Shown here piece by piece: positions 18,486 through 46,925 of a stretch of DNA of 64,000 nucleotides. This stretch comes from Xylanibacter ruminicola (GTDB lineage: Bacteria > Bacteroidota > Bacteroidia > Bacteroidales > Bacteroidaceae): NCBI GenBank assembly GCA_015060625.1, contig SUYC01000005.1, positions 41,270 through 105,269 on the forward strand, in the 5' to 3' direction. Under the pieces are notes generated by a model. The model saw nothing but the letters and a program-made list of their open reading frames with translations, was not told the origin of the DNA and made no database searches. Within the stretch, counting starts at the first letter, position 1. Each line of letters begins with the position of its first letter. The position numbers were made by a program, and so were the translations under genes.

Positions 18486-19733
18486 ATGGCAAGACTTATA
18501 GTTAGAAATGTAGGACCAATAAAGGATGTGGATATTGAGCTAAGGAAGGTCAATGTCTTCATGGGACCTCAAGGTTGTGGCAAGAGCACTCTTGCTAAAA
18601 TCATCAGTTTTTGTTCCTGGCTTGAGAAAGATAGTGATGCTACGATGAAAGCCGAGACGGGTGGTCTTGTGTCATTAATGATGAAGTTCCATAGAATGGA
18701 AGGCTATTTCCAGGATGAGTCAGAACTGGCATACATTGGAGATGATGTGGCCTTTTTCTATCATTTCCCTGAACCATTCCCTCTCAATTGGAAATCTGAC
18801 GATTTTGCCACATCTCACTTTCGCCAAGATGAGTTTATTTTCCATAAGGCTCAGAGAAGTGTCAACCCTAAGGTGATATATATTCCTGCTGAGAGAAATT
18901 TCGTGTCTGTTGTACCTAATCTTCAAAAATACGCGGAGCAAGATGATTCTCTTCAGAGTTTTGTGAACGACTGGTTCGTTGCTAAAAAGGCATATACAGA
19001 AAAACAGCCGCTGAAGATAGAAATGTTGGGTATAGAGTATTATTACAGTTCTAAGACTGATAGCGACATTGTGGTTATGGCTGGACAAAATGTTAGGCTT
19101 AGCCAGTCAAGTAGCGGTTTTCAGTCAGTTGTGCCATTAATGGCTTTGCTGAGCTATCTGTCATCAACAATCTATGAAGAAAACAAACCTTTTTCGCCAG
19201 CAGAAAACGAACAGATGAGAGAGATTCTTTCGCGTGTGTCGAGTGAAGCCAAAGATGGAATGGAGCAGAAACTGATAGAACGCATAAAAGGATTTCTTCA
19301 GGGAAAAGTATATACTCATACCCAGTTTGTCGTTGAAGAACCTGAGCAGAATCTGTTCCCAAATACGCAGTGCCAACTGATGTATCATCTGCTAAGTTGT
19401 TTGAATCATGGCAAAGCACACCGTGCTGTAATAACAACACACAGTCCCTATATACTTTATGCTCTTAATAATTGCTTATTGGCAAATATTGTCCGGGAAG
19501 AAATTCTTAAAGAAGAAAATGCAGAGTTGAACATAAATTGTTTAGATGTTGTTATAGCTCCTGGCGATGTGGGCGTGTGGGAAATAGAGAATGGAAGCAT
19601 GAAAACATACGGTGAGGAATCTGCCAACAGTACTATACAAGATAAAGATGGACTGATAAGACAGAACTACTTCAATAGTGTGATGGGCGACGTGATGCGT
19701 GATTTTAATAATCTGCTGATGTATAAGGACTAA
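18486..19733 (+). CDS. ABC-type (AAA_15/AAA_21-like) ATPase
   Basis: IRNVGPI-like N-terminus, Walker A GPQGCGKST, YIPAERN, signature LSQSSSGFQS, Walker B/D-loop VVEEPEQNLFP, H-loop ITTHSPY. Confidence 0.9.
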   Translation: MARLIVRNVGPIKDVDIELRKVNVFMGPQGCGKSTLAKIISFCSWLEKDSDATMKAETGGLVSLMMKFHRMEGYFQDESELAYIGDDVAFFYHFPEPFPLNWKSDDFATSHFRQDEFIFHKAQRSVNPKVIYIPAERNFVSVVPNLQKYAEQDDSLQSFVNDWFVAKKAYTEKQPLKIEMLGIEYYYSSKTDSDIVVMAGQNVRLSQSSSGFQSVVPLMALLSYLSSTIYEENKPFSPAENEQMREILSRVSSEAKDGMEQKLIERIKGFLQGKVYTHTQFVVEEPEQNLFPNTQCQLMYHLLSCLNHGKAHRAVITTHSPYILYALNNCLLANIVREEILKEENAELNINCLDVVIAPGDVGVWEIENGSMKTYGEESANSTIQDKDGLIRQNYFNSVMGDVMRDFNNLLMYKD

Positions 19734-19741
19734 AATCTGAG

Positions 19742-20332
19742 ATGGAAAAGATATTCAGAGAAACTGAGCGATTTGAGTCCGACTTCTATATTGGAGACTA
19801 TACGCGATATTCAGAGAGTTATCCGACTTGCGGAAAGACGGGTGTTGTAATGTCAAACATGCCGTTTGCAGATATCAAAACACTTCATTTCGAAAACAAA
19901 CAGCATATACCTGTATTGGCTGTCAACTTTGAGAAGAATTTGAGCTATTTTAGGGGCAATGATCACGAACTTGTTTCGAATTGTGAATGTATGCTTGTTT
20001 CAGACAAGGCTCGTAAGAAGGGGTGGCTGGTGTTGGCAGAGTTGAAATATTGTGGTGGAGATCCAAGAACGGTGAATGATAATTTTGAGAAAGCTCTTTC
20101 ACAGGTAAAGGACACTTTTCTATATTTGAGAGATATAAAACACTTGTTTGGTGAGTCCGACTACCGGTATATATGGGTTGTTTCTCTTCCAGAGCATGAC
20201 GAAATGATACCATTCAGCCAGTTCTATCCATCACCCGAACGTATTCTGACTTACAAAGAGCAGCTTCATGTTAACCTGATATGTTCGAATACAATTGAGA
20301 TTCGCACTCATCAACATGTAAAGGTAGAGTAA
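19742..20332 (+). CDS. Hypothetical protein, putative PD-(D/E)xK-like nuclease partner of the ATPase
   Basis: CECMLV...LVLAELKY...KALSQVKDT pattern. Starts 8 nt after the ATPase stop. Confidence 0.6.
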   Translation: MEKIFRETERFESDFYIGDYTRYSESYPTCGKTGVVMSNMPFADIKTLHFENKQHIPVLAVNFEKNLSYFRGNDHELVSNCECMLVSDKARKKGWLVLAELKYCGGDPRTVNDNFEKALSQVKDTFLYLRDIKHLFGESDYRYIWVVSLPEHDEMIPFSQFYPSPERILTYKEQLHVNLICSNTIEIRTHQHVKVE

Positions 20333-20385
20333 AAATCTTAATCATAGATAACAATAAAACCTTACATACTCTTATTCTTAGTTAA

Positions 20386-20547
20386 AGTACGTCGGGGAAC
20401 GACAACAACGGTGGCAGTGGTGGTGATACGCAGAACTTCCCATCGGTTGGCGACACCTATCAAGGATGCCACGTGCTGGCCGTGACGGTGGAAGATGATG
20501 GGCAGTCGGCTGAGTTGGGGCTGCTCGCCCCCAGCCGCGCGGCATAA
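20386..20547 (+). pseudogene. Possible start-less 3' remnant of a surface-protein gene
   Basis: Open frame STSGNDNNGGSGGDTQNFPSVGDTYQGCHVLAVTVEDDGQSAELGLL..., preceded by an in-frame stop and GC-richer than its flanks. Confidence 0.25.
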
Positions 20548-20556
20548 CCCCGCGGT
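20527..20556. repeat. GC-rich REP-like hairpin element, copy 2
   Basis: GCCCCCAGCCGCGCGGCATAACCCCGCGGT, same orientation as 16196-16224 with one extra A. Confidence 0.8.
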
Positions 20557-20570
20557 GTTTTAGCATGGTA

Positions 20571-20708
20571 TTAGATATGTTCAATAATGTCGCGGTTGAA
20601 ACTACGGAGTGATTTCAACTCGCCAACAAACTCATCGTCTGTCATACCATCATCACCCCAGATGCCATAATATTTCTTAGCTGATATACGCTTAGGAGTT
20701 GTAACCAT
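20571..20708 (-). CDS. Small antitoxin-like protein MVTTPKRISAKKYYGIWGDDGMTDDEFVGELKSLRSFNRDIIEHI
   Basis: 45 aa directly downstream of a TATCTTTG promoter. The GIW..D..D.EF..EL...R pattern resembles small antitoxins found before PIN toxins. Confidence 0.4.
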   Translation of the reverse strand: MVTTPKRISAKKYYGIWGDDGMTDDEFVGELKSLRSFNRDIIEHI

Positions 20709-20725
20709 AACTTTACTATTTTTGC

Positions 20726-20764
20726 TGCAAAGATAGGATATATCTTTGAAACTTGCAAGTTTTT
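20726..20764 (-). promoter_or_regulatory. Promoter with palindrome AAACTTGCAAGTTT, duplicated at 21970-22008
   Basis: TGCAAAGATAGGATATATCTTTGAAACTTGCAAGTTTTT versus TGCAAAGATAGAATATATTTTTGAAACTTGCAAGCTTTT (3 mismatches). Confidence 0.75.
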
Positions 20765-20897
20765 GGTTCACTTCTTTTTGTAAAGAAGGTGAACAACTCA
20801 AGAAAGCACTAGCACTATTTGGGCTTACAAATTAAGTAAGCTACCCATAAATGTTGCAAAGGAATTGCATTTGCCTGATGCCATTAGATTAGAGAAA

Positions 20898-21947
20898 TCA
20901 TCCTTTGTGAGTATTGACATGATTGGTGATAAAGTTAGAAGAAAGGATATCATAATTGCTAAGACCCGTGCGAGCAAACTTAGCAAACAGTTCCTGGTGG
21001 GTTTGGCTATTAAGACTGGTAACCACGCTACCCGTACGTTGAAGGATATTCCACAAATCCAAATCAACCGTATCAAGTAGGAAACTATCATTCGAAGTTA
21101 CTATCAGCTGTATCGACTTGGCCTTACAATAGGAGAACACTATCTTACCCAACTTTGTAGATCGGCGATAGTCCAAACCTTCGCCCATATCATCAATCAT
21201 CAGGCAGCGGGCTCCCTTCAGTGTTGAGCTGTATATCATATAGAGCAATACACTGAACACACGGAACATTCCGTTTGAGAGTTCGTAGAACTCCATCGGC
21301 TTCTCGATGCCTGTTTCGTATATCAACAGCCACTTACCACCAGAAGCATTCTCAACTACCTCAATCTTGTCAATCTGGTAGCCAAGCTCCTTAATATACT
21401 CTATCAATACGTTTTGCTGATTCTTTATCTGCTCATACATCTCAGGGATAAGAGGCTCGGTAGAGAGTATATAAGGACTTAACGACTTTAACGAAGCCGT
21501 GATATTACTAAACACATAAAGCGAAGTATGCTCAGCCCATAAAATAATCTCCTCGATTTCTGGATAACGCATGGTATCTCTACGAGCCTGTATTAACAGC
21601 TTGTTTGCAGGTGGATTTACCGATTCACCATACATCTCGGCGGTAGATGCATTTCTGACAATCTTAGACTGTCCATCAATCAAGAGACTTTCTGACTTGA
21701 TTAATCCGTCAGACAGCTCGAATGCATATTCAATCTGATGGCTATTTGACAATCTAAGCACACAAGAGAAATCCTTTTTGGCCAATTCTGAGTCGTTCTT
21801 AATAAAGCGAATGACATTACCCAAGGCCTCTAAAGTCCTTGACTTACCTACAGAATTCATACCAACAATAAGGTTCTGGTGATGAAGTGTAAGCTTTTCC
21901 AGTTGCCAACCGGAAGATTCTCTATATGAAAATTCTGTCAGAATCAT
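20898..21947 (-). CDS. ABC-type (AAA_21-like) ATPase, start MILTEF at 21947
   Basis: Walker A VGMNSVGKSR, signature ELSNGMFR, Walker B LMIDDMGEGLD, and IVTSND at the H-loop position. Confidence 0.85.
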   Translation of the reverse strand: MILTEFSYRESSGWQLEKLTLHHQNLIVGMNSVGKSRTLEALGNVIRFIKNDSELAKKDFSCVLRLSNSHQIEYAFELSDGLIKSESLLIDGQSKIVRNASTAEMYGESVNPPANKLLIQARRDTMRYPEIEEIILWAEHTSLYVFSNITASLKSLSPYILSTEPLIPEMYEQIKNQQNVLIEYIKELGYQIDKIEVVENASGGKWLLIYETGIEKPMEFYELSNGMFRVFSVLLYMIYSSTLKGARCLMIDDMGEGLDYRRSTKLGKIVFSYCKAKSIQLIVTSNDSFLLDTVDLDLWNILQRTGSVVTSLNSQTHQELFAKFARTGLSNYDILSSNFITNHVNTHKG

Positions 21948-22051
21948 AATGTATATACTATTATTCGCATGCAAAGATAGAATATATTTTTGAAACTTGC
22001 AAGCTTTTTGAAAAGAAGATGAACAAAAATTAGATGTTAATTTGCATTTTA

Positions 22052-22464: not shown

Positions 22465-23157
22465 ATGGATGCATTGATTAATGCTAACAAGGCAACATCA
22501 CCAATAACCCGCTGTGGACTTACCTCCATGGCCATCCCCGAAGCTATAGATGCACAAAAAGGGGCGTCGGTAGAATACGCTCCTGACCCTGATAAGCGCT
22601 GGTATGTGCTCCGTGCCTCCTATGGTCGTGAGATATTAGCCGAACAGCTACTCATCCAGAGCCATGTCTATGCCTACGTTCCCAAACGCTATACCTATAT
22701 CGAGGTGAAGGGCCGCCCCAAAAAGGTGTTGCAATGCCTCATTGCCAATATCGTGTTTGCCTATCTCACACCCAAGCAAGCTATGATGTTCGTTCGTAAT
22801 AACGATCCTGATGAGCCATCGCCAGCCCCGCAATTGTCAGAATTTATTAGCTTCTACTATAATCATTTTGTCGAGGGTGAAAACTGGCGAAATCCGCCGC
22901 TTACTATCCCTGAGCACGAGATGCTCAACTTTATTTGTGCCACCTGCTCGAACGACGAGAATCTGCTGATGCTCCAGGGAGGCGACTTTCATTACAAAAC
23001 CGACGATGAAGTCGAGGTTATCTGTGGTCAGTTCAAAGGTGTTCGTGGTCGAGTCATCCGAGCCCGCGGTCAGCAACGAGTGCTTGTCGCTCTTACCGCC
23101 CTCAATTGCTTCTGTGCCACCGCTTATATTCCGACCCCGTTCCTCCAAAAAATATAA
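22465..23157 (+). CDS. upxY: UpxY-family (NusG-like) transcription antiterminator
   Basis: NGN domain WYVLRASYGRE...YVPKRY...LIANIVFAY and KOW EVEVICGQFKGVRGRVIR. First gene of a polysaccharide locus. Confidence 0.88.
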   Translation: MDALINANKATSPITRCGLTSMAIPEAIDAQKGASVEYAPDPDKRWYVLRASYGREILAEQLLIQSHVYAYVPKRYTYIEVKGRPKKVLQCLIANIVFAYLTPKQAMMFVRNNDPDEPSPAPQLSEFISFYYNHFVEGENWRNPPLTIPEHEMLNFICATCSNDENLLMLQGGDFHYKTDDEVEVICGQFKGVRGRVIRARGQQRVLVALTALNCFCATAYIPTPFLQKI

Positions 23158-23171
23158 CTCCCAAAATACCG

Positions 23172-23227
23172 TGAGTTAATTCAAAACGTCTAATGAGTTA
23201 ATTCATTGCCCCTTTTGAATTAATTCA
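23172..23227. repeat. Three palindromic TGA(G/A)TTAATTCA sites at a 22-bp period
   Basis: Copies at 23172, 23194 and 23216. Confidence 0.75.
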
Positions 23228-23256
23228 CCGCACTTCGAGGCCTCTCGATTACGATG

Positions 23257-23318
23257 AAAAATCAAATTGATTTTGGAGCAAAAGTAACTTGATTTTGAGT
23301 AATAATCAACTTGATTTT
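23257..23318. repeat. Three AATCAA(C/A)TTGATTTT-type sites at a 22-bp period
   Basis: TTGATTTT ends at 23274, 23296 and 23318. Confidence 0.75.
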
Positions 23319-23338
23319 CGATGAAAACCAATAAGGAA

Positions 23339-23438
23339 AATATCCTCATCCCTTCTTAACCCCCTCTCTATATAGCCCCCATCCTCTCTCTAAAGAGAGG
23401 TGGGGCTATAGTAAGAGGGGTGTAAGGGATAGGGATAT
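23339..23438. repeat. Long imperfect hairpin with ~45-50 bp arms
   Basis: ATATCC...CCCCTCT...TATAGCCCC...CCTCTC / GAGAGG.TGGGGCTATA...AGAGGGG...GGATAT. Confidence 0.7.
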
Positions 23439-23708
23439 GCCTTACGATTGGGCTATGGCATGGCGAGAAAAGGTCGAATGTAATTCAACCGGTTATTATC
23501 ATGGGATTGTACCATCATCGTAATCTTATTGGTTCGCCAAGTGCATTCGTGAGAGTTGTATGATATACTGCCACATGGCAGGTATATAAAAACGTTTTAA
23601 AGGGGGCAGACTCTTATCAGGATTTCTCATAAATAAAGGTTCAATAACCTGGTAATCCTGCCCCTTTTTCAAAGTAAATTAGTAGAATAAGAAATAATAA
23701 ACAAAATT

Positions 23709-24965
23709 ATGGAAAGAAGAAAAGATAGAATCCTTCTATGCCTGTGCCATCTTTCTGGCAACGAGCAGAAGTTTGTAAACGAAGCATTTGATACCAACTG
23801 GGTTGTGCCCCTTGGCCCTAATGTAAATGGATTCGAGAAAGACCTCGAAGAGTTCGTTGGTCAAAATAAGAGGGTGGTAGCCCTCTCTGCTGGAACAGCA
23901 GCTGTGCATCTTGCATTGCTGAACTGTGGTGTAGGACCTGGTGATGAAGTGCTGGTACAGAGCTTTACGTTCTGCGCATCTAGCCACCCTATTACATATC
24001 TTGGTGCAACGCCTGTTTTCATTGATTCTGAGAAAGAGACATGGAACATGGATCCAGAGTTGTTGGAGAAGGCTATTATCGACCGTAAGGAGAAAACAGG
24101 TAAGTACCCCAAGGCTATCGTGCCGGTAGCACTCTACGGTATGCCGTACAAGATTGACCAGATTATGGCTATCGCCAACAAGTATGGCATTCCTGTGGTA
24201 GAGGATGCTGCTGAGGGCTTTGGCTCTAAGTTCAACGGTCAGGTGCTGGGTACATTTGGTAAATATGGTGTATTAAGCTTTAACGGTAACAAGATGATTA
24301 CTACCTCTGGCGGTGGTGCATTGATTACTGAGAACGAGGACGAGTGGCGAGAGATTATGATGTATGCCACTCAGTACCGTGAAAGCTATCCGTACTACCA
24401 GCACGAGAAGATTGGCTATAACTACCGTATGAGTAATATCTGTGCAGGTATTGGTCGTGGTCAGATGACCATATTAGATGAGCATATTGCCCATCACAAG
24501 AAGGTACAGAAGATGTACGAAGAGCTGCTGAAGGACGTGAAGGGTGTTACCGTACATAGCCAGCCTGAAACAGGAGAGTACGACTCTAACTACTGGCTTT
24601 GCACCATGACCATTAATCCTGACGTGAAGGTTAAGGGGCAGGAGAATGCGTATAAGCAGATTGTTACAGGTGCCGTAGGAGGTGCTGCTGGTGTGATTCA
24701 TGCTGCAGATTCAGCAACAACAGACTGTCAGCCTAATGATAATGTGGAGGCCATGCGTATGGGCTTGGATGCCCTGAATATTGAGAGCCGCCCACTTTGG
24801 AAGCCTATGCATAAGCAGCCTGTTTATAAGAATGCACCTGCATATGTAAATGGTGTCAGCGAAGACCTGTTCAAGATAGGTATGTGCTTACCTGCAGGCC
24901 CATATGTTACAGAGGATGACGTGCATTTCATCTGTGATGCTATCAAGAGTTTGATTAACGAATAA
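23709..24965 (+). CDS. DegT/DnrJ/EryC1/StrS (PglE-like) NDP-4-keto-6-deoxy-sugar aminotransferase
   Basis: EAFDTNWVVPLGPNVNGFE, SAGTAAVHLAL, EDAAE, PLP Lys in SFNGNKMITTSGGG, GYNYRMSN, ESRPLWKPMH. Confidence 0.92.
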   Translation: MERRKDRILLCLCHLSGNEQKFVNEAFDTNWVVPLGPNVNGFEKDLEEFVGQNKRVVALSAGTAAVHLALLNCGVGPGDEVLVQSFTFCASSHPITYLGATPVFIDSEKETWNMDPELLEKAIIDRKEKTGKYPKAIVPVALYGMPYKIDQIMAIANKYGIPVVEDAAEGFGSKFNGQVLGTFGKYGVLSFNGNKMITTSGGGALITENEDEWREIMMYATQYRESYPYYQHEKIGYNYRMSNICAGIGRGQMTILDEHIAHHKKVQKMYEELLKDVKGVTVHSQPETGEYDSNYWLCTMTINPDVKVKGQENAYKQIVTGAVGGAAGVIHAADSATTDCQPNDNVEAMRMGLDALNIESRPLWKPMHKQPVYKNAPAYVNGVSEDLFKIGMCLPAGPYVTEDDVHFICDAIKSLINE

Positions 24966-24983
24966 AAAACGCTGTAATTGGCT

Positions 24984-26077
24984 GTGAATAAGAAAAATCC
25001 CCCCCCCATTTAAGGGTTGAAAGGCAGTCCAACTTTGAGGCTTTAAGACTGCTCTCCATGCTGATGGTACTTAATCTCCATAGTTTTTGGGGATTTAACT
25101 ATGGCAGTGGTATTTGGCAGGCTCTTGACTTCTTTAGGGAAAGCACTTCTATCTGTGCCGTAGACTGTTTCATATTGATTTCAGGCTATTTTTGCATCAA
25201 GTGGAAGTTCCGCAGTTTCTTCAATCTCATATTTCAGATTTTCTTCTATAGCGTAGGGCTCTATCTCGTTGTAGTCGGCCTTGGAATTGTTGATTGGAGC
25301 TTAAAAGAATTCATCATCAGGTTCGGATGTCTGTTTACAAGATCGTGGGGCTTTGCCATCACGTTTGTCCTACTTTACTTCTGTTCACCTGTGCTGAATG
25401 CTTTTGCAGATAGGTCATCGTCTCGTGAGTTGCTTCTATACATTATTGTATTTTTCATAGTCATCAATTTCGTGAGTATTCCTCGTTTCGACCTGTTTAC
25501 CTATGCACTGGTTTACCTCGTCGGTCGATGGTTGAGAAAAATGAATGTAGCAGATCTGAAGTTTCCTTCTGGAAAGGCATATTGGATAGTGACAGTTTTG
25601 ATATTTGTTATCGTCTATGTCCTTTGCTTTTGCGTGTTGCATTTTACGAAGTCTAACGTTCTCAAATGGCCTTTTGGTATCATTGGCTATAATTATGCGG
25701 CACCGTTGGTTATACTACAGGCAGTATCCCTTTTTATGTTCTTTGCACGACTGAGGTTCAAAAGTAACTTTATCAACTGGTGTGCAGCATCAAGTTTTGC
25801 AATCTATCTCATTCACATGCATCCGACCATCAAACAAATAGGATATTATGCATTTACTAAGTCTTTATATGAACAGCCTCCCTTTCTGCATGTTGTTGCT
25901 CTCGTTGCATTTATCTTAGCAGTGTTTTTCGCTTGTATATTCATAGATAAAATCAGAATAGCAATATCTAATGTATGCTTTCTTATGGTAGAATCATTAC
26001 TGAAGCATGTACCAGTAAAAATATTTAAGATAGAAACCTATTTGCCATCATCTATGGCAGTATTGATTTCAAAATAA
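24984..26077 (+). CDS. Acyltransferase family 3 (OafA-like) membrane O-acyltransferase, frameshifted at the C9 tract; intact frame runs 24992-26077
   Basis: The conserved family start ERQSNFEALRLLSMLMVLNLH lies upstream of the first in-frame ATG (25058). Also VDCFILISGYF and SSFAIYLIH. Confidence 0.8.
24999..25007 (+). repeat. C9 homopolymer that separates the acyltransferase start codon from its reading frame
   Basis: GTG AAT AAG AAA AAT C9 ATT TAA stops at 25013. C10 or C7 would read through into RQSNFEALRLLSM. Confidence 0.8.
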
Positions 26078-26078
26078 T

Positions 26079-26714
26079 ATGAAGAATCTAATCCTTATAG
26101 GTGGTGGTGGTCACTGCAAGTCCGTTATGGATGCAGCTGAGAGTGCGGGTTACAGTATTTTTGGAGTGCTGGATGTAGCGGAGAATGTTGGCAAGGAAGT
26201 ACTCTCAACCAAGATTATAGGCACAGATGAAAACATTCCTGCTTACGTTGATAAGGCAGAGTTTGTTATCACTGTTGGTTTCATCAAGAATCCTGCAGTT
26301 CGTATCAAGCTATACAATAAGGTAAAGGAAGCTGGAGGAAAGTTCGCTACAATCATAGCTTCTACTGCATACGTTTCTAAATATGCAGAAATAGGCGAAG
26401 GTACGGTCGTTCTCCATCAGGCATTTGTGAATGCTGGTGCTAGGGTTGGTAAGAATGTCATATTGAATACTGCAACCAACATTGAGCATGATGCAGTTAT
26501 TGGCAATCACTGCCATATTTCTACAGGAACTATGGTAAATGGCGAGTGCAAGGTCGGCGAACGCTGCTTTATTGGAAGTCAGTCCGTTCTCGCCAACTGC
26601 ATTTCTGTTGGAGATGATATTATTGTGGGAGCTGGTTCTTTTGTCAGAAAGACAATTTCTGAAAAAGGTATCTACTCAGGTAATCCTGCTATTCTAAAAA
26701 TTAGGGCAAAATGA
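26079..26714 (+). CDS. neuD: NeuD/PglD-family sugar acetyltransferase
   Basis: LILIGGGGHCKSV, hexapeptide repeats, NTATNIEHD..IG.HCHISTG. Confidence 0.85.
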   Translation: MKNLILIGGGGHCKSVMDAAESAGYSIFGVLDVAENVGKEVLSTKIIGTDENIPAYVDKAEFVITVGFIKNPAVRIKLYNKVKEAGGKFATIIASTAYVSKYAEIGEGTVVLHQAFVNAGARVGKNVILNTATNIEHDAVIGNHCHISTGTMVNGECKVGERCFIGSQSVLANCISVGDDIIVGAGSFVRKTISEKGIYSGNPAILKIRAK

Positions 26715-27721
26715 AACATACAATCATCATAGCAGAGGCTGGCGTGAACCATAATGGTTCCATTGAGCTGGCAAAGCAGCTGGTAGATAAAGCCGTTGAA
26801 GCAGGTGTGGACTTTATCAAATTCCAGACCTTTAAGGCTGCAAAGCTTGTCACTAAGACTGCAAAGCAGGCAGAATATCAGCAGAAGAACATTGGTAAAG
26901 AAGGTGATAGTCAGTACCAGATGTTGAAGAAGTTGGAGCTTTCACCTGAAGACCATGAGTTATTGATTGCTTACTGCAAAGAGAAAGGCATTAAGTTCTT
27001 CTCTACGGCCTTTGACTTTGATAGCATTGAGTATTTGCATTCATTGAATCTGGGCTTGTGGAAGATTCCTTCAGGAGAAGTAACCAACTATCCTTTCTTG
27101 AAGCGTGTGGCTGCCTATAATGAAAAGACCATCCTCAGTACAGGTATGTGTGATATGGTTGATGTTCGTGCAGCTGTAGAGGCTTTATACAAGAATGGTT
27201 TATCAAAGGAGAACCTGATTCTGCTTCATTGCAATACCGAGTATCCTACGCCTTTTGAGGATGTAAACCTTAAAGCAATGGAGGCACTCCGTGAAGAATT
27301 TGGTGTAGAGGTGGGTTATAGCGACCATACAAAAGGTATTGAAGTACCCATTGCTGCTGTAGCTTTAGGTGCAACTGTCATTGAGAAGCATTTCACCCTT
27401 GACCGTAACATGGAAGGACCTGACCATAAAGCCAGCCTTGAACCTGATGAATTGAAAGCGATGGTCTCAGCCATCCGCAACATTGAGAAGGCTGTGGGTG
27501 GCGACGGTACTAAGCACGTGAGTGAAAGTGAACGAAAAAATATCGCCATTGCCCGCAAGAGCATTGTGGCTGCTTGCGATATCAAAGCTGGCGAAACCTT
27601 TACGGAAGAGAACCTGACTGTAAAGCGTCCTGGTAGCGGTATCTCTCCCATGCGTTGGGAAGAGATAGTTGGCCAGAAAGCCAAGAAAGATTTCAATGAA
27701 GACGAGTTGATTGAGCTATGA
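26711..27721 (+). CDS. neuB: Nonulosonate synthase, NeuB/LegI type
   Basis: IIAEAGVNHNGS, KFQTF, KIPSGEVTN, LLHCNTEYPTP, GYSDHT, IEKHFTLD..GPDH.ASLEP, C-terminal SAF domain. Confidence 0.95.
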   Translation: MKHTIIIAEAGVNHNGSIELAKQLVDKAVEAGVDFIKFQTFKAAKLVTKTAKQAEYQQKNIGKEGDSQYQMLKKLELSPEDHELLIAYCKEKGIKFFSTAFDFDSIEYLHSLNLGLWKIPSGEVTNYPFLKRVAAYNEKTILSTGMCDMVDVRAAVEALYKNGLSKENLILLHCNTEYPTPFEDVNLKAMEALREEFGVEVGYSDHTKGIEVPIAAVALGATVIEKHFTLDRNMEGPDHKASLEPDELKAMVSAIRNIEKAVGGDGTKHVSESERKNIAIARKSIVAACDIKAGETFTEENLTVKRPGSGISPMRWEEIVGQKAKKDFNEDELIEL

Positions 27722-28878
27722 GAAAGATTTGTGTAGTAACAGGTACTCGTGCAGAGTATGGCTTGCTGAGCAGGCTGATGGGGATGATTAAGGATTCTGA
27801 CCAGACGCAGTTGCAGGTCATTGTTACTAATATGCACCTAAGTCAAAAATATGGCAATACTTACCAAGAAATAGAGAAAGATGGTTTTACCATTGACTGC
27901 AAGATCCCTATTATAGATCAGAACGCTGAGGACAATGCTGTAACAACGGTAAAGTCAATGGCAACAGCCCTTTCTGGATTTGCTGAAGCATACAATACGT
28001 TGAAACCGGATTTGGTGGTAGTACTTGGTGACCGTTATGAGATACTTGCTGCCGCAACAGCTGCATTGATTGAGCGTATTCCCATAGCTCATCTGCATGG
28101 CGGTGAAGTGACAGAAGGGGCTTACGATGATGCTATTCGTCATAGCATTACCAAGATGAGCCACTTGCATTTCACTTCTACGGAAGAGTATAGAAACCGT
28201 GTGATTCAATTGGGTGAGCAGCCTGATAGAGTATTCTATGTGGGAGCTCCTGGGGTGGAGAATATCAAGAAGTTCCCGCTGATGAGTAAGGAAGAAGTTG
28301 AGGAATCGGTCAACTTCAAGTTGGATGAAAACACTATTTTGGTGACTTATCATCCAGTGACCTTGGGTGACCATACCGCAGGAAAGGACATCAAAGAGTT
28401 TCTAGGTGCGTTAGAAGAGCGCAAGGATTTGCGTGTGTTCTTTACTATGCCCAACTCTGATACAGGTTCTCAAGCTATTGTGGATGCCATCAATGAATTT
28501 GTGGCAAACAACTCAGACAGAGCCATTGCTTATAAGTCGCTTGGAATTAAGCGTTATCTCTCTGTGATGAAATATGCAGGAGCTGTCGTTGGCAATTCTT
28601 CCAGTGGTTTGCTGGAAGTACCTTCTTTTGGCATTCCCACATTGAATATTGGTGATCGCCAAAAGGGTAGGATGGCTGCTGATAGTGTCTATAACTGTGA
28701 GACTGATAAAGAGTCTATCCTGAAAGGTTTGGATGTGATTTTGTCACCAGCTTTTAAAAAGAAAGCGGCAGAAACGCATAATCCTTACGAGAAAGCAAAT
28801 ACAGCAGAAGAGATATTCAAGGTGATTAGCACCTATCCTTTGGAGGAATTAAAACAGAAACATTTCTACGATTTATGA
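27718..28878 (+). CDS. neuC: Hydrolysing NDP-GlcNAc/Bac 2-epimerase, NeuC/LegG type
   Basis: VVTGTRAEYGLL, LGDRYE, HLHGGE, DDAIRHSITKMSHLHF, VTYHPVT, GNSSSG, NIGDRQKGR. Confidence 0.95.
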   Translation: MRKICVVTGTRAEYGLLSRLMGMIKDSDQTQLQVIVTNMHLSQKYGNTYQEIEKDGFTIDCKIPIIDQNAEDNAVTTVKSMATALSGFAEAYNTLKPDLVVVLGDRYEILAAATAALIERIPIAHLHGGEVTEGAYDDAIRHSITKMSHLHFTSTEEYRNRVIQLGEQPDRVFYVGAPGVENIKKFPLMSKEEVEESVNFKLDENTILVTYHPVTLGDHTAGKDIKEFLGALEERKDLRVFFTMPNSDTGSQAIVDAINEFVANNSDRAIAYKSLGIKRYLSVMKYAGAVVGNSSSGLLEVPSFGIPTLNIGDRQKGRMAADSVYNCETDKESILKGLDVILSPAFKKKAAETHNPYEKANTAEEIFKVISTYPLEELKQKHFYDL

Positions 28879-40963: not shown

Positions 40964-41197
40964 ATGGAATTGAAAGATTTTATCCAGAATTTCGCAGAGC
41001 AGTTTGATGATACGCCTGCAAGTGAGTTTACAGCTGAAACTGTTTTTCATGAGTTAGATGAGTATTCATCGCTGATAGCACTGTCCATCATTTCGATGGT
41101 TGACGAAGAGTATGGGGTCATGCTTAGCGGTAATGAAATGAAGGCGGCTGTTACTATTGAAGATTTGTATAACACCGTAAAGAGTAAGGCAGAGTGA
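40964..41197 (+). CDS. Acyl carrier protein
   Basis: 77 aa, acidic, with phosphopantetheine Ser in EYSSLIAL. Confidence 0.85.
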   Translation: MELKDFIQNFAEQFDDTPASEFTAETVFHELDEYSSLIALSIISMVDEEYGVMLSGNEMKAAVTIEDLYNTVKSKAE

Positions 41198-41940
41198 TGT
41201 ATAATCCATTCTCATTGGAAGGAAAGAGCATTCTGATTACTGGTGCTGCTGGTGGCATTGGCCGTGCCATGGCCATCGAGTGTGCCAAGATGGGAGCAAG
41301 ACTTTTCCTGACGGATGTTGTAAAGGAAGGACTTGACGCAACGATAAGCCTGTTGGAAGGTGAAGGCCACAAAAGCATTGTGGCAGATCTGACCGATGAC
41401 GAGCAGCTTGACTCGCTGGTGTCAGCTCTTCCAGCCTTGGACGGCATGGTGAGCAATGCAGGTGTCACAAAGCCTGCTCCTGTGAAATTTATCAAGAAAG
41501 AGGATTTGCAGCGAATTGTTTCCATCAATGCAATGGCTCCAATCTGTCTCACCCAGAAACTGCTGAAGAAGAAAAAGTTCAATGACGGCGGCTCTTTGGT
41601 ATTTACCGTTTCTATAGGTGGCGTCTATACAACTGCACCTGGCAATGCTATGTATGGTGCATCGAAAGGTGCTCTTCAGGTGTTTGTCAAGAATGTGGCC
41701 TTGGAGATGGCTCCTAAACTGCGTTGCAACAGCATCAATCCAGGCATGGTGAATACTGGGCTGGTGAAGGGTGGTATCTACTCTGATGAAGACAAGGCGA
41801 AGGACCTTATGACTTATCCGCTAAAAAGGTATGGTGAACCAAGAGACATCGCACTGGCTGCGGTTTATCTGCTGTCTGACGCTTCGTCGTGGATGACAGG
41901 TCACTCTCTTATCATAGACGGTGGAAAAACGCTTTATTAA
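41197..41940 (+). CDS. FabG-like SDR oxidoreductase
   Basis: ITGAAGGIG, SNAG, YGASK, NSINPG. Confidence 0.9.
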   Translation: MYNPFSLEGKSILITGAAGGIGRAMAIECAKMGARLFLTDVVKEGLDATISLLEGEGHKSIVADLTDDEQLDSLVSALPALDGMVSNAGVTKPAPVKFIKKEDLQRIVSINAMAPICLTQKLLKKKKFNDGGSLVFTVSIGGVYTTAPGNAMYGASKGALQVFVKNVALEMAPKLRCNSINPGMVNTGLVKGGIYSDEDKAKDLMTYPLKRYGEPRDIALAAVYLLSDASSWMTGHSLIIDGGKTLY

Positions 41941-41948
41941 AAAAAGAC

Positions 41949-42674
41949 ATGTTATTAGAAAATAAAATTGCTATCGTGACAGGAGCTGGCCGAGGCATAG
42001 GTCGCGCTATCGCAGAGAAGTTTGCCAGCGAAGGTGCTATTGTCTATGCTGCAGATGTCCGTGAAGATGATTTGAAATGGACGGAGGAAAACACCTCTGT
42101 GCATAGCATTACTTTGGATATCTGTGACTTTGCAGCCGTTAAGAACGCTGTGATGGCCATTAAGAAGGAACATGGTCAGATAGATGTGCTCGTCAACAAC
42201 GCTGGACTTATCTCATACGAGATGATGAGCATGATAGACTATGACAAGTTTCGCAAAATGATTGAAGTGAACGTCGTAGCATTGATACACCTAATGCAGA
42301 TGGTGGCGAGAATTATGACACGCCGAAACGAAGGTTCTATCATCAACATGGCAAGTATGGTGGCAGTAAAAGGCGCTGCTGGCCAATTGTCGTATGCAGC
42401 AACGAAAGGTGCGGTCATCTCTGCTACCAAGTCGGCTGCGAAAGAGCTGGCCAACAATCATATCCGTGTGAATGCAATTGCTCCTGGTATGGTTGGGACA
42501 GAGAGGTTTAAGGCCGTCTTGAAAGAAAAATTTAGTCAAAAAATCAATGACATACCCTTTGGTCGCTTGGCAGAACCAGAGGATATAGCCAATGCTGCAC
42601 TCTATCTGGCTTCCGATATGTCATGTTACGTGACAGGTCAGGTGTTGGGTGTGGATGGTGCTGCTGTCATCTAA
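41949..42674 (+). CDS. FabG-like SDR oxidoreductase
   Basis: VTGAGRGIG, VNNAG, YAATK, NAIAPG. Confidence 0.9.
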   Translation: MLLENKIAIVTGAGRGIGRAIAEKFASEGAIVYAADVREDDLKWTEENTSVHSITLDICDFAAVKNAVMAIKKEHGQIDVLVNNAGLISYEMMSMIDYDKFRKMIEVNVVALIHLMQMVARIMTRRNEGSIINMASMVAVKGAAGQLSYAATKGAVISATKSAAKELANNHIRVNAIAPGMVGTERFKAVLKEKFSQKINDIPFGRLAEPEDIANAALYLASDMSCYVTGQVLGVDGAAVI

Positions 42675-42686
42675 AAAACAATAGTT

Positions 42687-43757
42687 ATGGCTTTATTTAC
42701 AATTAAGAACGTAAAAATCAAGGGTGTTTCAGCCGCTGTACCTGAGACAAAAGTATCTACATACGATTACGACTTCTTCAGTAAGGAAGATGCGGATACA
42801 TTCATCAAGACTGTAGGAATCGAAAATAGGTATGTGGCTCAGAATGGAGAATGTGCTTCTGACCTGTGTAAGTTAGCGGCCGACAAACTGATTGAAGGCT
42901 TAGGCTGGGAGAGAGAGAGTATTGGTATTCTTTCTTTTGAGTCTGTTACGGCAGATTATCGCACTCCGCCAACCTCATGCATCTTGCAGGATAGGCTTGG
43001 ACTGAGTACTGACTGTATGACCTTCGATCTGCCTATGGGATGCTGCGGTTTTCTCTATTCTGTGTGTGTAGTAGGAAAGATGATGCAGACAGGCGACGTG
43101 AACCGTGCTATTTTGCTGATAGGAGATACTATCACAAGGATGGGTTCGCCAAAGGATAAAAGCAGACTTCCCTTGTTTGGTGATTGCGGTACGGCTGTAG
43201 CCTTGGAGTATGACGAGAGTGCAGATGACATTATCATTGACATGAACTCATATGGTAAGGGTTTTGAGGCTCTGATTACACCGCACAGCGGTTTCCGCCA
43301 TCAGGTGACACCAGAGTCCTTTGAGTATGAGGACTTCGGCAACGGAGTGGTTCGTGCCCCGGTACACTCGCTAATTCAGGGCATGGACGTGTTTGCCTTT
43401 GCTATCTCCAGACCACCAAAGTCTATTAAGGCTCTGTTTGAGAAGTATGGTATCGACAAGGAAAAGGATATAGATTACTTCCTTATTCATCAGGCCAATA
43501 AACTGATTGTCGATAAGGTGGTGAAGAAATCTGGTCTTGACCTTGCTAAGACACCATCCAACATCAAGAATTTTGCAAACTTAGGTGGGGCATCTATCCC
43601 TATGCTGATGGTGTCGGAGATTGCAGATGACCTGAAGGGTAAGAAACTGAGTCTGATGGCTTCCGCTTTTGGCCTTGGTCTGACATGGGGTACGATGCTT
43701 TTCAAGACAGAGAATCTTATCGTACCAGAATTAGCTTTCTATAACAAGGAGGATTAA
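42687..43757 (+). CDS. 3-oxoacyl-ACP synthase III (FabH-like)
   Basis: Cys-His-Asn triad: MGCCGFLY, IHQAN, FANLGGASIP. Confidence 0.9.
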   Translation: MALFTIKNVKIKGVSAAVPETKVSTYDYDFFSKEDADTFIKTVGIENRYVAQNGECASDLCKLAADKLIEGLGWERESIGILSFESVTADYRTPPTSCILQDRLGLSTDCMTFDLPMGCCGFLYSVCVVGKMMQTGDVNRAILLIGDTITRMGSPKDKSRLPLFGDCGTAVALEYDESADDIIIDMNSYGKGFEALITPHSGFRHQVTPESFEYEDFGNGVVRAPVHSLIQGMDVFAFAISRPPKSIKALFEKYGIDKEKDIDYFLIHQANKLIVDKVVKKSGLDLAKTPSNIKNFANLGGASIPMLMVSEIADDLKGKKLSLMASAFGLGLTWGTMLFKTENLIVPELAFYNKED

Positions 43758-43761
43758 GCGT

Positions 43762-45141
43762 ATGTTTCTGGATTTAGACAAAAAGGACAAAACTGCAGTC
43801 GCTGTCATTGATGATAGTGGCCAGTCTATTACCTACGGCGATATTTGTGACTTCTCCAAAAAGTTCCACGAATATCTGCCGATACGTGCGCTGATATTCA
43901 TCCTTTCTGAAAACAGAATAGGCTCGCTATTGGGATATACCTCTGCACTGAGTAACAGAATTGTACCGTTGATTCTGAGTGCTAAGACAGAGAAAGGACT
44001 CTATGAAAATTTGCGGGATATGTATAAGCCTGAATATCTCTGGTTGCCCAATGAAATGGTGGAGGATATGGGGTATGAGACAATATTCTCTGATTTTGGT
44101 TATACATTAGTAAAGACTGGAAATCCTGCTGCGGCCATGTACGAAGATTTGTCTCTATTACTGCCTACGTCAGGCTCTACAGGTAGTCCAAAATTGGTTC
44201 GCCATTCATATCGCAATATTGAGGCAAACGCCTTTAATGTGTTGAGGATGTTTGGTCTGACACCATCGGAGAAGGCTATGGCTATACTGCCGATGCACTA
44301 TACGATGGGCCTTTCCGTGATAGCATCGCATCTTTTGGCAGGCGCGACATTGCTTCTTTCAGGAAGGTCGCTGCTCGACAAAGGCTTCTGGGATATGTTG
44401 AAGGAGGCAACCAGCTTTACAGGTGTTCCCTACAGCTATGAGATCCTGATGAAGATGCGCTTCACCCGTATGGACTTGCCGAATCTGAAGATTATTACAC
44501 AAGGTGGCGGAAAACTGACAGAGGAAATGTTTCAGGCTCTTGCTAAATATGCGCAGGAGAAGGGAAAACAGTTTATTCCTACCTATGGTCAGTCAGAATG
44601 TACTGCACGTATGGCATACCTGCCTGCCGAGCTTGCACTCACTAAGACCTGTAGTATCGGTATGGCAGAGCCAGGTGGTCAGTTGTCTATCATTGATAAC
44701 GACGGGAATGAAACCTTCGAGGGTGTGGCACAAGGCGAAATGGTGTATCGAGGCGAGAATGTAACCCTTGGATATGCCTATAGCATAGATGATTTGCAAA
44801 AAGGTGATGAAAACCATGGCGTAATGCATACAGGTGATCTTGCAAAACGAGATGCAGATGGGTGCTATTACATTGTAGGCAGGCTGAAACGCTTCCTGAA
44901 AATCTTCGGACTCAGGATTGGACTTGACGAGATAGAAGGTCTTATCAAAGAGAGATACGACATCGACTGTTACTGTAAGGGCGATGACGAAAAGCTTATT
45001 GTACTGATTACAAAGGCTGATCTTTCTGATGAGATCATATCATTTATAGAAGAAAAGACACATTTGTTCCATAAGAATATTGAGGTTCAAATCGTGGATG
45101 CTATCCTAAGGAATGAAGCAGGTAAAGTAATTAATCAATAA
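43762..45141 (+). CDS. AMP-binding (adenylate-forming) acyl/aminoacyl ligase
   Basis: TSGSTGSPK, YGQSE, HTGDL, GRLKR...G.RI. Confidence 0.9.
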   Translation: MFLDLDKKDKTAVAVIDDSGQSITYGDICDFSKKFHEYLPIRALIFILSENRIGSLLGYTSALSNRIVPLILSAKTEKGLYENLRDMYKPEYLWLPNEMVEDMGYETIFSDFGYTLVKTGNPAAAMYEDLSLLLPTSGSTGSPKLVRHSYRNIEANAFNVLRMFGLTPSEKAMAILPMHYTMGLSVIASHLLAGATLLLSGRSLLDKGFWDMLKEATSFTGVPYSYEILMKMRFTRMDLPNLKIITQGGGKLTEEMFQALAKYAQEKGKQFIPTYGQSECTARMAYLPAELALTKTCSIGMAEPGGQLSIIDNDGNETFEGVAQGEMVYRGENVTLGYAYSIDDLQKGDENHGVMHTGDLAKRDADGCYYIVGRLKRFLKIFGLRIGLDEIEGLIKERYDIDCYCKGDDEKLIVLITKADLSDEIISFIEEKTHLFHKNIEVQIVDAILRNEAGKVINQ

Positions 45142-45148
45142 AAAGAAT

Positions 45149-45388
45149 ATGACAAATTTGGAAAAATTGAATAACATCTTTGCAGAGGTGTTTAATGTAG
45201 AAGTGTCTGCTCTGAATGCAGATTTTGATAACAAAAGTGTTGAAGGATGGGACAGCGTTCATCAGCTTAGTCTGACAAGTGCTGTCGAGGATGAGTTTGA
45301 CATCATGCTTGATGGTGAGGATATTCTGGGATTTACCTCATACGAGAATGCCAAGGAAATCCTAAAGAAGTATGAAATATCTCTTTAG
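45149..45388 (+). CDS. Second acyl/aminoacyl carrier protein
   Basis: 79 aa with WDSVHQL phosphopantetheine motif. Confidence 0.85.
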   Translation: MTNLEKLNNIFAEVFNVEVSALNADFDNKSVEGWDSVHQLSLTSAVEDEFDIMLDGEDILGFTSYENAKEILKKYEISL

Positions 45389-45444
45389 AGTAAGATTCAT
45401 ATTATTAAGTTGATTACTCCAGATTATTAACCGTATTTTTTATT

Positions 45445-45876
45445 ATGAATTTGAGATCATATTTATGGAAGAAACTTGTAAGGTTCTATCCATGGTATCT
45501 GCGTCGTGTTTATAAAATGGATATAGGAAAGGACGTGTGGGTTTCATGGAAAGCACATCTTGATAAGTCCATAAATCCTCGTGGAATACATATTGGGGAT
45601 AGAACGATTATCGCAAATGGGGCAATGATATTATCACATGATATGTGCCGACGATTAAAAGTGAACACAACAATAGGTAATGATTGTCTCATAGGTGCAA
45701 GATCAATAATTCTTCCCGGAGTGACCATTGGTGATTCGTCTTTAGTAGCTGCGGGGGGGGTAGTTTCTAAAGATGTTCCACCAAATTGTGTCGTGGCAGG
45801 TAACCCTGCTAAAATTGTAAAAACTGGTGTTGTTCTTAAAAAAGGCATTATCATTGAGGCAGGACAAAAGGTATAA
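45445..45876 (+). CDS. Hexapeptide-repeat (LbH) acyltransferase
   Basis: TTIGNDCLIGARSIILPGVTIGDSSLVAAGGVV..DVP...VVAGNPAK. Contains a G8 tract at 45753-45760. Confidence 0.88.
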   Translation: MNLRSYLWKKLVRFYPWYLRRVYKMDIGKDVWVSWKAHLDKSINPRGIHIGDRTIIANGAMILSHDMCRRLKVNTTIGNDCLIGARSIILPGVTIGDSSLVAAGGVVSKDVPPNCVVAGNPAKIVKTGVVLKKGIIIEAGQKV

Positions 45877-45923: not shown

Positions 45924-46925
45924 ATGATTATGAACAAGATACAATTGATGGGGGGGGTACGAATAGATGCCATAGATATTCTCAAATTCTTAGCAGCCCT
46001 TCTTATTACAAACAGTCACATGAATGGACTGTATCCGCCAAAATTTGAGGCATTAGCAACAGGTGGCGCTTTAGGAGACTCATGTTTCTTTTTTTGTTCT
46101 GGCTTCCTTTTGATACAAAGCCGAGGTGGTGATTTTTTCAATTGGTATAAAAGGAGGGTGAACAGAATCTTCCCGACGTTGTTTGCTATAGCTATTGTAT
46201 CCATCGTGGCTTTCGGTAAGAATCCAGCGTTCAAATCTGTAATCCTATCAGAAAATGCTTGGTTTGTACAAGCCATATTGGTTTTCTATGCCGCATTTTG
46301 GTTCGTAAAACGTTTCCTTTCGGACAAGATGTGGGGAGTAATAACTGCAGTGGGCATAATAAGTCTGATATGGTTCGCTTTCTTTTGGGACAAAAGTGTA
46401 TCGGTTTTCATGGTCGGAACCTATCTGCGTTGGCCATTGTTTTTTTGTGTAATGTTAATAGGTGCTATTACAGCGAAGAATTATCGTCAGGGCATTCAGC
46501 ACAAACTGATGATTTCGTTTTTATTCTTCATACTTTTGATGGGCTTGTTCTATGGATATCAAATCTTGGAGAAGAAAAAAATGATGCTATGCAATTATGA
46601 AATTGTGATAGCTCCCATTCTGTTCTTGGCAGTATATGAGTTGTTCTGGATTTGTTCAAATGAAAGAGTAGTATCTTTTTACCGCAAGAAAGGCATTTAT
46701 GCAGTAGTGTTTTTCATCTCATCATTGTGCTTTGAGATTTACTTGTCACAACATTATCTGTTTCCTATAGGGAAAAGCCTGATTAGACTATTCCCGCTGA
46801 ATATCATTATTTGTTTTGTATTGATAGTCGGTGTGGCTTATATAGTAAAGGTTTTGGGCAACTTTATCAGCCAAACATTTAAGTCGGATAATTACGAATG
46901 GAAGAAAATGGTGAAAATACCCTAA
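45924..46925 (+). CDS. Acyltransferase family 3 membrane O-acyltransferase
   Basis: RIDAIDILKF, FFFCSGF, FEIYLSQ, many TMs. In-frame G8 tract at 45950-45957. Confidence 0.8.
   Translation: MIMNKIQLMGGVRIDAIDILKFLAALLITNSHMNGLYPPKFEALATGGALGDSCFFFCSGFLLIQSRGGDFFNWYKRRVNRIFPTLFAIAIVSIVAFGKNPAFKSVILSENAWFVQAILVFYAAFWFVKRFLSDKMWGVITAVGIISLIWFAFFWDKSVSVFMVGTYLRWPLFFCVMLIGAITAKNYRQGIQHKLMISFLFFILLMGLFYGYQILEKKKMMLCNYEIVIAPILFLAVYELFWICSNERVVSFYRKKGIYAVVFFISSLCFEIYLSQHYLFPIGKSLIRLFPLNIIICFVLIVGVAYIVKVLGNFISQTFKSDNYEWKKMVKIP

Follow-up and report, generated by a model that had tools for sequence, protein, structure and literature searches.

The pglI gene of Neisseria encodes an O-acetyltransferase of the acyltransferase-3 (AT3) family that modifies the pilin glycan and is phase variable by way of a poly-G tract. 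The pglI tract is not known to recur at a fixed position among divergent members of its enzyme family. Here, we analyze a stretch of Xylanibacter ruminicola DNA (positions 41,270 to 105,269 of contig SUYC01000005.1, assembly GCA_015060625.1), referred to below as the 64-kb window, in which a run of nine cytosines (C9) lies at the 5' end of an AT3 O-acyltransferase gene, AT3 #1, within a capsule locus. From the comparison of natural alleles, we put at about 78% the probability that the C9 run is a classical simple-sequence-repeat contingency locus. As in pglI, the coding region of AT3 #1 contains a G/C homopolymer that would switch an AT3 membrane enzyme predicted to act on a surface glycan. 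The pglI gene is proteobacterial, however, and the target of its product is a protein O-glycan, not a capsule. The mechanism itself is already known, and what appears to be new, within an incomplete literature search, is the phylum and the retention of the tract at the same position in divergent members of an enzyme family. That search found no description of G/C tracts in AT3 genes of Bacteroidales, and an earlier description is possible given its incompleteness.

Other systems resemble AT3 #1 in part. The oafA gene of Haemophilus influenzae encodes an AT3 enzyme that O-acetylates heptose of the lipooligosaccharide and contains intragenic tetranucleotide repeats at its 5' end, and the copy in the original Rd genome was frameshifted (PMC9558356). 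Thus oafA is also a phase-variable AT3 gene with a 5' intragenic repeat, but its repeat unit is a tetranucleotide and its target is the lipooligosaccharide. In Escherichia coli K1, neuO of the CUS-3 prophage encodes a polysialate O-acetyltransferase with heteropolymeric repeats (PMC3046976, PMC3090145). As proposed here, slippage in a 5' repeat varies the O-acetylation of a nonulosonic acid capsule, but NeuO is soluble and belongs to the hexapeptide-repeat enzymes, not to the AT3 family, and its gene is prophage borne. The first-pass annotation of the window had named Neisseria, Haemophilus, and E. coli K1 together as precedents for homopolymer slippage; Neisseria is apt, whereas the repeats are tetranucleotide in oafA (PMC9558356) and heteropolymeric in neuO (PMC3090145). 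The best functional analog is Legionella pneumophila lag-1, which encodes an AT3-only enzyme for the 8-O-acetylation of legionaminic acid and is reviewed without a simple-repeat switch (PMC9558356). We liken AT3 #1 to lag-1 by architecture and gene setting, not by sequence similarity.

Two further systems bear on the locus as a whole. Campylobacter jejuni carries poly-G contingency genes in its capsule and flagellar-glycan loci, for example, Cj1295 (PMC3068675, PMC8437040), and there, too, several G/C homopolymer switches occur in one glycan locus, some of them in genes that modify nonulosonic acids, and generate combinatorial surface states. C. jejuni belongs to another phylum, however, the enzyme families differ, and switching has been demonstrated experimentally. 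In Bacteroides fragilis, capsule phase variation operates through invertible promoters and the UpxY/UpxZ proteins (PMC3090145, PMC11868660), and a 2025 review of phase variation gives only invertase-type systems, namely promoter and shufflon inversions, for Bacteroides (PMC11868660). The locus described here is likewise headed by a upxY-like gene, is Wzy dependent, and contains modification genes. Promoter inversion acts on whole loci, however, whereas the tract in the window, although long, is confined to one gene, would affect one substituent, and recurs across the enzyme family. We note that Patrick et al. reported an acetyltransferase-related gene of B. fragilis 638R that is frameshifted by a C4-to-C5 change, and they speculated on slippage (PMC3090145).

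Tract and reading frames of AT3 #1

Translation from the GTG codon at 24984-86 would proceed through AAT AAG AAA AAT, enter the C9 run five codons downstream of the start, and end after ATT at the TAA of 25011-13, for a total of nine codons. The conserved frame of AT3 #1 opens at 24992, immediately behind a TAA at 24989-91, and translates as EKSPPHLRVERQSNFEALRLLSM. This frame reads EKSPPHLRVERQSNFEALRLLSMLMVLNLH, and its first start codon of any kind is the ATG at 25058 (codon 26), from which an intact open reading frame (ORF) of 339 amino acids extends to 26077. When the tract was changed in silico, C10 and C7 gave in-frame proteins of 364 and 363 amino acids, respectively, while C8, C9, and C11 led to a stop within 9 to 12 codons; C13 is likewise a predicted in-frame (ON) length, and the C9 of the window is out of frame (OFF). 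We therefore agree with the first-pass annotation that the GTG frame is cut short by the C9 run (it had estimated about 10 codons), that no ATG, GTG, or TTG precedes 25058 in the AT3 frame, and that C10 or C7 would join the two frames. Moreover, the same GTG is the start of in-frame proteins of 363 to 364 amino acids from other samples (P0130 and P0133). Finally, the 339-amino-acid ORF matches Pfam PF01757 (Acyl_transf_3) at 45.8 bits (cutoff, 31), but the match begins only at profile position 12, and thus the ORF is without its N terminus.

The truncated form is predicted to be inactive. In an alignment of 33 homologs, residues R14, E19, R22, and H33 were invariant, and R22-X10-H33 of the C10 read-through protein corresponds to R/K-X10-H, a motif located in the first transmembrane helix. 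The product of ATG 25058 lacks R14, E19, R22, and half of that helix. Pearson et al. found R/K-X10-H in every bacterial AT3 acetyltransferase of their characterized set, and in OafA the R14A and H25A variants kept 0.07% and 0.33% of activity, respectively (PMC7448272). We infer that the protein from ATG 25058 is inactive, and a fully active protein, which the first-pass annotation had offered as the outcome that would refute a switch, is unlikely because invariant R14, E19, and R22 are missing, the motif arginine among them. The length of 364 amino acids and the single Pfam domain fit the AT3-only type, which has about 10 transmembrane helices and no fused SGNH domain, and a crude hydropathy scan gave 7 strong segments in AT3 #1 and 10 in a second AT3 gene of the locus, AT3 #2.

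Within the window, the run at 24999 is the sole C run of at least 7, and G/C runs of at least 8 occur at only three places (24999, 45753, and 45950). Overlapping G8 matches numbered 4 against 0.78 expected, and 4 were reached in 5 of 100 shuffles; as the count is barely above chance, we do not build the argument on it. What stands out is the placement of the runs rather than their number. Each is found within an acyl- or acetyltransferase gene of a single capsule locus, and two occupy the same N-terminal position of AT3 genes.

As a contingency locus, the tract would work as follows. Slipped-strand mispairing during replication would add or remove one C, and the change in length would shift the conserved gene body into or out of frame with the GTG start, reversibly within a clone. 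At C9, translation from the GTG would end after nine codons and yield no functional enzyme, and at C10 or C7, the enzyme of 363 to 364 amino acids would be made. A population would then contain cells with acylated capsule and cells with nonacylated capsule, and the G8 tract of AT3 #2 would permit combinatorial states. Escape from phage or antibody may be the ecological benefit.

Tract length among natural alleles

We compared the window with Logan assembled contigs of sequencing runs (coded with X numbers) and with fetched homologous loci (L numbers), and a gene was taken as the same ortholog when its protein was at least 90% identical to AT3 #1. The ortholog occurs in three allele types, and each contains both ON and OFF members. 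Type 1, with the flank ATTTAAGGG, is OFF as C9 (window, X1, and X2) or as A+C8 (X3, X4, X7, X13, L086, L087, L090, and L091) and ON as C10 (X5/X6) or as A+C9 (L082 and X12). Type 2, with the flank ATAAGGGG, is OFF as A+C7 (L026 and L088/L089/X20) and ON as A+C8 (L083, L084, L085, and X26). The third type is OFF as A+C7+T (X27) and ON as A+C8+T (X15), and a further flank variant, ATGTAAGGGG, is OFF with A+C8 (X28). The C10 allele of X5/X6 otherwise matches the window except for an intergenic A6-to-A5 change at 24964, and the ON and OFF alleles of type 2 are 100% identical over 150 nucleotides upstream and 99.7% identical over 300 nucleotides downstream of the tract. The tally of the ortholog, about 13 OFF and about 7 ON observations, is only approximate because certain coded runs and named loci may represent identical data. 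The 90% protein cluster P0001 likewise contains 11 members of 337 to 339 amino acids and 3 members of 363 to 365 amino acids that begin MNKKNTPP. Thus, the first-pass proposal of a phase-variable O-acyltransferase gains support from the recurrence of C9 in independent assemblies, from in-frame alleles elsewhere, and from the presence of the tract throughout the family (below).

Three smaller observations concern the same comparison. The A5-for-A6 change of X5/X6 (run 24964-24969) is in the 18-nucleotide spacer between legC and the GTG, likely the translation-initiation region. Contigs of six low-depth runs (X8, X9, X10, X13, X14, and X16) end at the tract, which is suggestive of length heterogeneity but fits low coverage equally. 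A variable-gap exact-pattern scan with the tract flanks gave no match in species-representative genome contigs, and the window allele is therefore absent from those genomes.

The tract is widespread in the enzyme family. Homologs of the C10 read-through protein numbered 358 at an E value of ≤1e-20 and carry the PF01757 annotation. Full-length members typically have GG, GGG, or PPP ahead of the core R-(Q/L)-S-N-x-E-A-L-R-L-L, at a distance of a few to about 13 residues, and roughly a quarter of homolog gene calls start at an internal MLMVLNLH. We fetched 81 homologous loci, placed the conserved arginine codon in 76, and scored a G/C run of at least 6 as a tract. Among the 55 loci with a core identity of at least 60%, 46 had a run of G6 to G11 or C7 to C9 located 6 to 23 nucleotides upstream of the arginine codon, and 24 of these were in frame with an upstream start and 22 were out of frame. 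The remaining 9 tractless alleles were all intact, and several write the same Gly-Gly as GGA GGT. Over all 76 loci, the gene was OFF in 24 of 54 tract-bearing and 0 of 22 tractless cases (Fisher P = 6e-5, merely indicative because the loci are not phylogenetically independent). One group with identical flanks spans G6, G7, G8, and G10 and differs in run length alone. Two loci with G8 (L038/L040) and two with G7 (L043/L060) are 100% identical on both sides, over 450 nucleotides in all, and an ON locus with G8 (L033) and an OFF locus with G9 (L034) have flanks that are 100% identical. Several of the homolog contigs with variable tracts have coverages of 41 to 171x, as read from contig names.

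The site is poly-G, encoding Gly-Gly-Gly, in most lineages and poly-C, encoding Pro-Pro-Pro, in others, and both GGG (8.2% of glycine codons) and CCC (12.7% of proline codons) are rare in the locus. Because poly-G and poly-C share the site and consist of rare codons, the conserved trait appears to be the DNA homopolymer and not the peptide, with selection acting on DNA. Moreover, a downstream ORF of at least 320 codons was kept in 18 of 21 OFF alleles and 27 of 31 ON alleles, and thus OFF alleles are unlike old pseudogenes. We note that longer runs occur at the same site in distant or human-gut homologs, namely, G14 in a Porphyromonadaceae metagenome-assembled genome (L010, about 20 nucleotides upstream of the arginine codon), G10 (L021), and G11 (L066), and the tract can therefore grow well past 8 to 9 bases. 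We lean toward, but hold less firmly than the switch itself, the view that a 5' G/C homopolymer ahead of the catalytic helix is an old, selected evolvability module of this AT3 subfamily that would add slippage-based microvariation of the capsule, by single substituents and combinatorial within a locus, to promoter inversion. Such a module would span Prevotellaceae and other gut and rumen Bacteroidales, with scattered occurrences in another AT3 subfamily.

For gut Bacteroidales, invertible promoters and the UpxY/UpxZ hierarchy now serve to explain almost all variation of the capsule. If a conserved slippage switch indeed operates in capsule O-acyltransferases, bacteria that are very abundant in the rumen and the human gut would have a second, finer level at which their surfaces differ, and O-acetylation is commonly what determines whether phages adsorb and antibodies bind. 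Roughly half of such genes carry an annotation as N-terminally truncated, or would be classed as pseudogenes, and they may instead be functional genes in the OFF phase. Perhaps tract lengths in metagenomes could serve as a population-level "phasotype."

Alternative explanations for the out-of-frame tract

The window might carry a sequencing or assembly error, such that the true genome has C10 and an intact gene. Homopolymers are classic sites of indel error, and an exact C10 version of the allele does exist in X5/X6, but Logan's independent assembly of two runs gave C9 at word depths of 267 and 171 with no variant contig. Moreover, at least eight further samples share this out-of-frame register with a tract of another composition (A+C8), and of the tract-bearing homologs, approximately half are out of frame, some of them on high-coverage contigs. 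Because independent assemblies show both frame states with near-identical flanks, a one-off error, which was the alternative named by the first-pass annotation, is very unlikely and the least probable of the explanations considered here. Long homopolymers can also provoke transcriptional slippage, and the OFF allele might still be expressed, either through polymerase or ribosome slippage on C9 or as a working enzyme from ATG 25058, with the tract merely tuning the level. The intact 339-amino-acid ORF and the uniform -1 register of OFF alleles in the ortholog, which a programmed +1 correction could exploit, speak for residual expression. The shorter product is without Arg22 of R/K-X10-H and half of the first helix (PMC7448272), however, and other allele groups of the family are OFF in both the +1 and the +2 registers (G7, G8, and G10, compared to an ON G6), a poor fit to a single programmed shift. 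We consider continued expression quite improbable, if a little less so than an error. Finally, AT3 #1 might be an ordinary pseudogene in which a dispensable modification gene suffered a one-way frameshift, as in the loss of wcjE or wciG in pneumococcus, where frameshifted capsule acetyltransferases became fixed as new serotypes (PMC5869949, PMC11934437). The greater number of OFF alleles in the ortholog would suit gene loss, as would the fact that reversible switching is deduced from alleles of different samples. Loss would not readily account for a tract kept at the same site in orthologs 60 to 100% identical and in a second, unrelated AT3 gene, nor for the maintenance of rare GGG and CCC codons, and secondary lesions in OFF alleles are not above the rate in ON alleles. 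Moreover, each of the three allele types contains both ON and OFF members, which would require repeated independent indels. Gene loss is thus unlikely, although of the three it comes closest.

Several points weigh against a slippage switch. In all three allele types of the AT3 #1 ortholog, every OFF state is shorter than its ON counterpart by exactly one base, and +1 OFF states are absent from the alleles compared, a bias that is unexplained and could hint at another mechanism. The comparison is of assembled contigs between samples, whereas phase variation is defined by length heterogeneity within one population. Coded runs may overlap named loci, such that counts are not fully independent, and homopolymer errors are possible in some of the low-coverage metagenome contigs. 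Finally, the acceptor sugar and the acyl group are deduced from gene neighborhood only. Nevertheless, we favor slippage in a contingency locus as the explanation for the alleles described above.

The capsule locus and a second AT3 gene

The host is X. (Prevotella) ruminicola-like, with a housekeeping M20 peptidase that is 99% identical to that of X. ruminicola Ga6B6, and the runs holding the sequence are sheep, goat, and bovine gut, feces, or bioreactor metagenomes. AT3 #1 is part of a long single-strand capsule locus (Table 1) that also encodes glycosyltransferases, a pyruvyl transferase, and a block of acyl carrier, ligase, β-ketoacyl-carrier protein synthase III (KAS III), and short-chain dehydrogenase/reductase (SDR) proteins. 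The gap of only 18 nucleotides between legC and the GTG suggests that the two genes are probably one operon. Downstream of the NeuC-type gene are two oxidoreductases, a cytidylyltransferase (weak match), and a sugar-phosphate nucleotidyltransferase. As judged from its gene content, the cassette around AT3 #1 is probably for a nonulosonic acid of the legionaminic acid type, and legionaminic acid (Leg), neuraminic acid (Neu), or another such sugar is compatible with the sequence. By gene neighborhood and by analogy to Lag-1 of Legionella, AT3 #1 most likely O-acylates that sugar or a neighboring residue.

Table 1. Positions of the AT3 genes, G/C tracts, and capsule genes in the window
Feature	Position	Strand	Remarks
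UpxY-like (NusG-type) antiterminator, head of locus	22465..23157	+	NF033644 UpxY 99.3 bits, cutoff 100 (borderline)
LegC-family sugar aminotransferase	23709..24965	+	DegT 299 bits; TIGR04181 LegC best match, 341 bits, under cutoff of 420
OFF-state mini-ORF	24984..25013	+	GTG start followed by 8 further codons for N K K N P P P I and a TAA stop; from sequence
AT3 #1 reading frame (acyltransferase-3, AT3-only)	24992..26077	+	Stop at 26075-77
C9 homopolymer, candidate slippage tract	24999..25007	+	Read from sequence
AT3 #1 Arg14 codon	25022-24		
AT3 #1 motif Arg22 codon	25046-48		
AT3 #1 motif His33 codon	25079-81		
NeuD/PglB-type N-acetyltransferase	26079-26714	+	TIGR03570 195 bits, above cutoff
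NeuB-type nonulosonate synthase	26711-27721	+	TIGR03569 515 bits, above cutoff
NeuC-type hydrolyzing 2-epimerase	27718-28878	+	TIGR03568 486 bits, above cutoff
Wzy polymerase	36292		Wzy_C
GT1	37502		
Initiating sugar transferase	46898		Bac_transf
G8 tract in hexapeptide acetyltransferase gene (45445-45876)	45753..45760	+	Codons ~103-106, AAGGVV
AT3 #2, 333 amino acids, in frame	45924..46925	+	22% identity to AT3 #1; K21-X10-H32 motif
G8 tract, codons 9-12 of AT3 #2	45950..45957	+	MGGV; 10 codons upstream of motif Lys

The tract of AT3 #2 also varies. It is G8 and in frame in the window, X1, and X4, and G5 and in frame in X7. The G9 tract of X3 puts the gene out of frame and is the sole change within 411 nucleotides. 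A minority of AT3 #2 family members show the GG/GGG signature. Because the tracts of both AT3 genes vary between samples, strains differ in their combined state: AT3 #1 is OFF and AT3 #2 is ON in the window, and both are OFF in X3. The G8 run at 45753, considered as a third switch, was set aside. The run is constant in X1, X3, and X4, homologs mostly have AAGAV or AAGSV, and their short forms are not truncated at that point, and thus the run is probably fortuitous. We note that the same hexapeptide acetyltransferase gene has a 2-nucleotide deletion at 45797-45798 in X4, away from homopolymers, which would frameshift about 25 C-terminal residues of 143.

The gap of about 550 nucleotides between upxY and the biosynthesis genes (23157 to 23709) contained no visible UpxZ-like ORF, and upstream of upxY, where an invertible promoter was sought, there were only imperfect inverted repeats, 73 to 87% complementary and none diagnostic. 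The gap downstream of upxY does hold a 36-nucleotide palindrome-like inverted repeat (23164-23235) and a G+C-rich hairpin (23355-23426). Elsewhere in the locus, a fatty-acid-like module at 41194-45390 comprises two SDR reductases, a KAS III-like enzyme, an AMP-ligase, and a candidate acyl carrier ORF (about 45150-45390), and it is adjoined by a PglD-type acyltransferase (40308) and the hexapeptide enzyme. Together, these genes suggest that a capsule sugar bears an unusual acyl group.

Candidate antiphage defense genes are located just upstream of the capsule locus, at 18486-21974. An ATPase of the AAA_15/AbiEii type there matches PADLOC PDC-M29A (E value, 1e-68) and has a 196-amino-acid partner without a family match, and an AbiLi-like ATPase is encoded on the opposite strand (20898-21974). 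Farther upstream, the minus strand at 2671-5160 encodes an 829-amino-acid Peptidase_C10 protein, a cysteine protease of the streptopain/interpain type with an N-terminal Spi inhibitor-like prodomain, typical of Prevotella.

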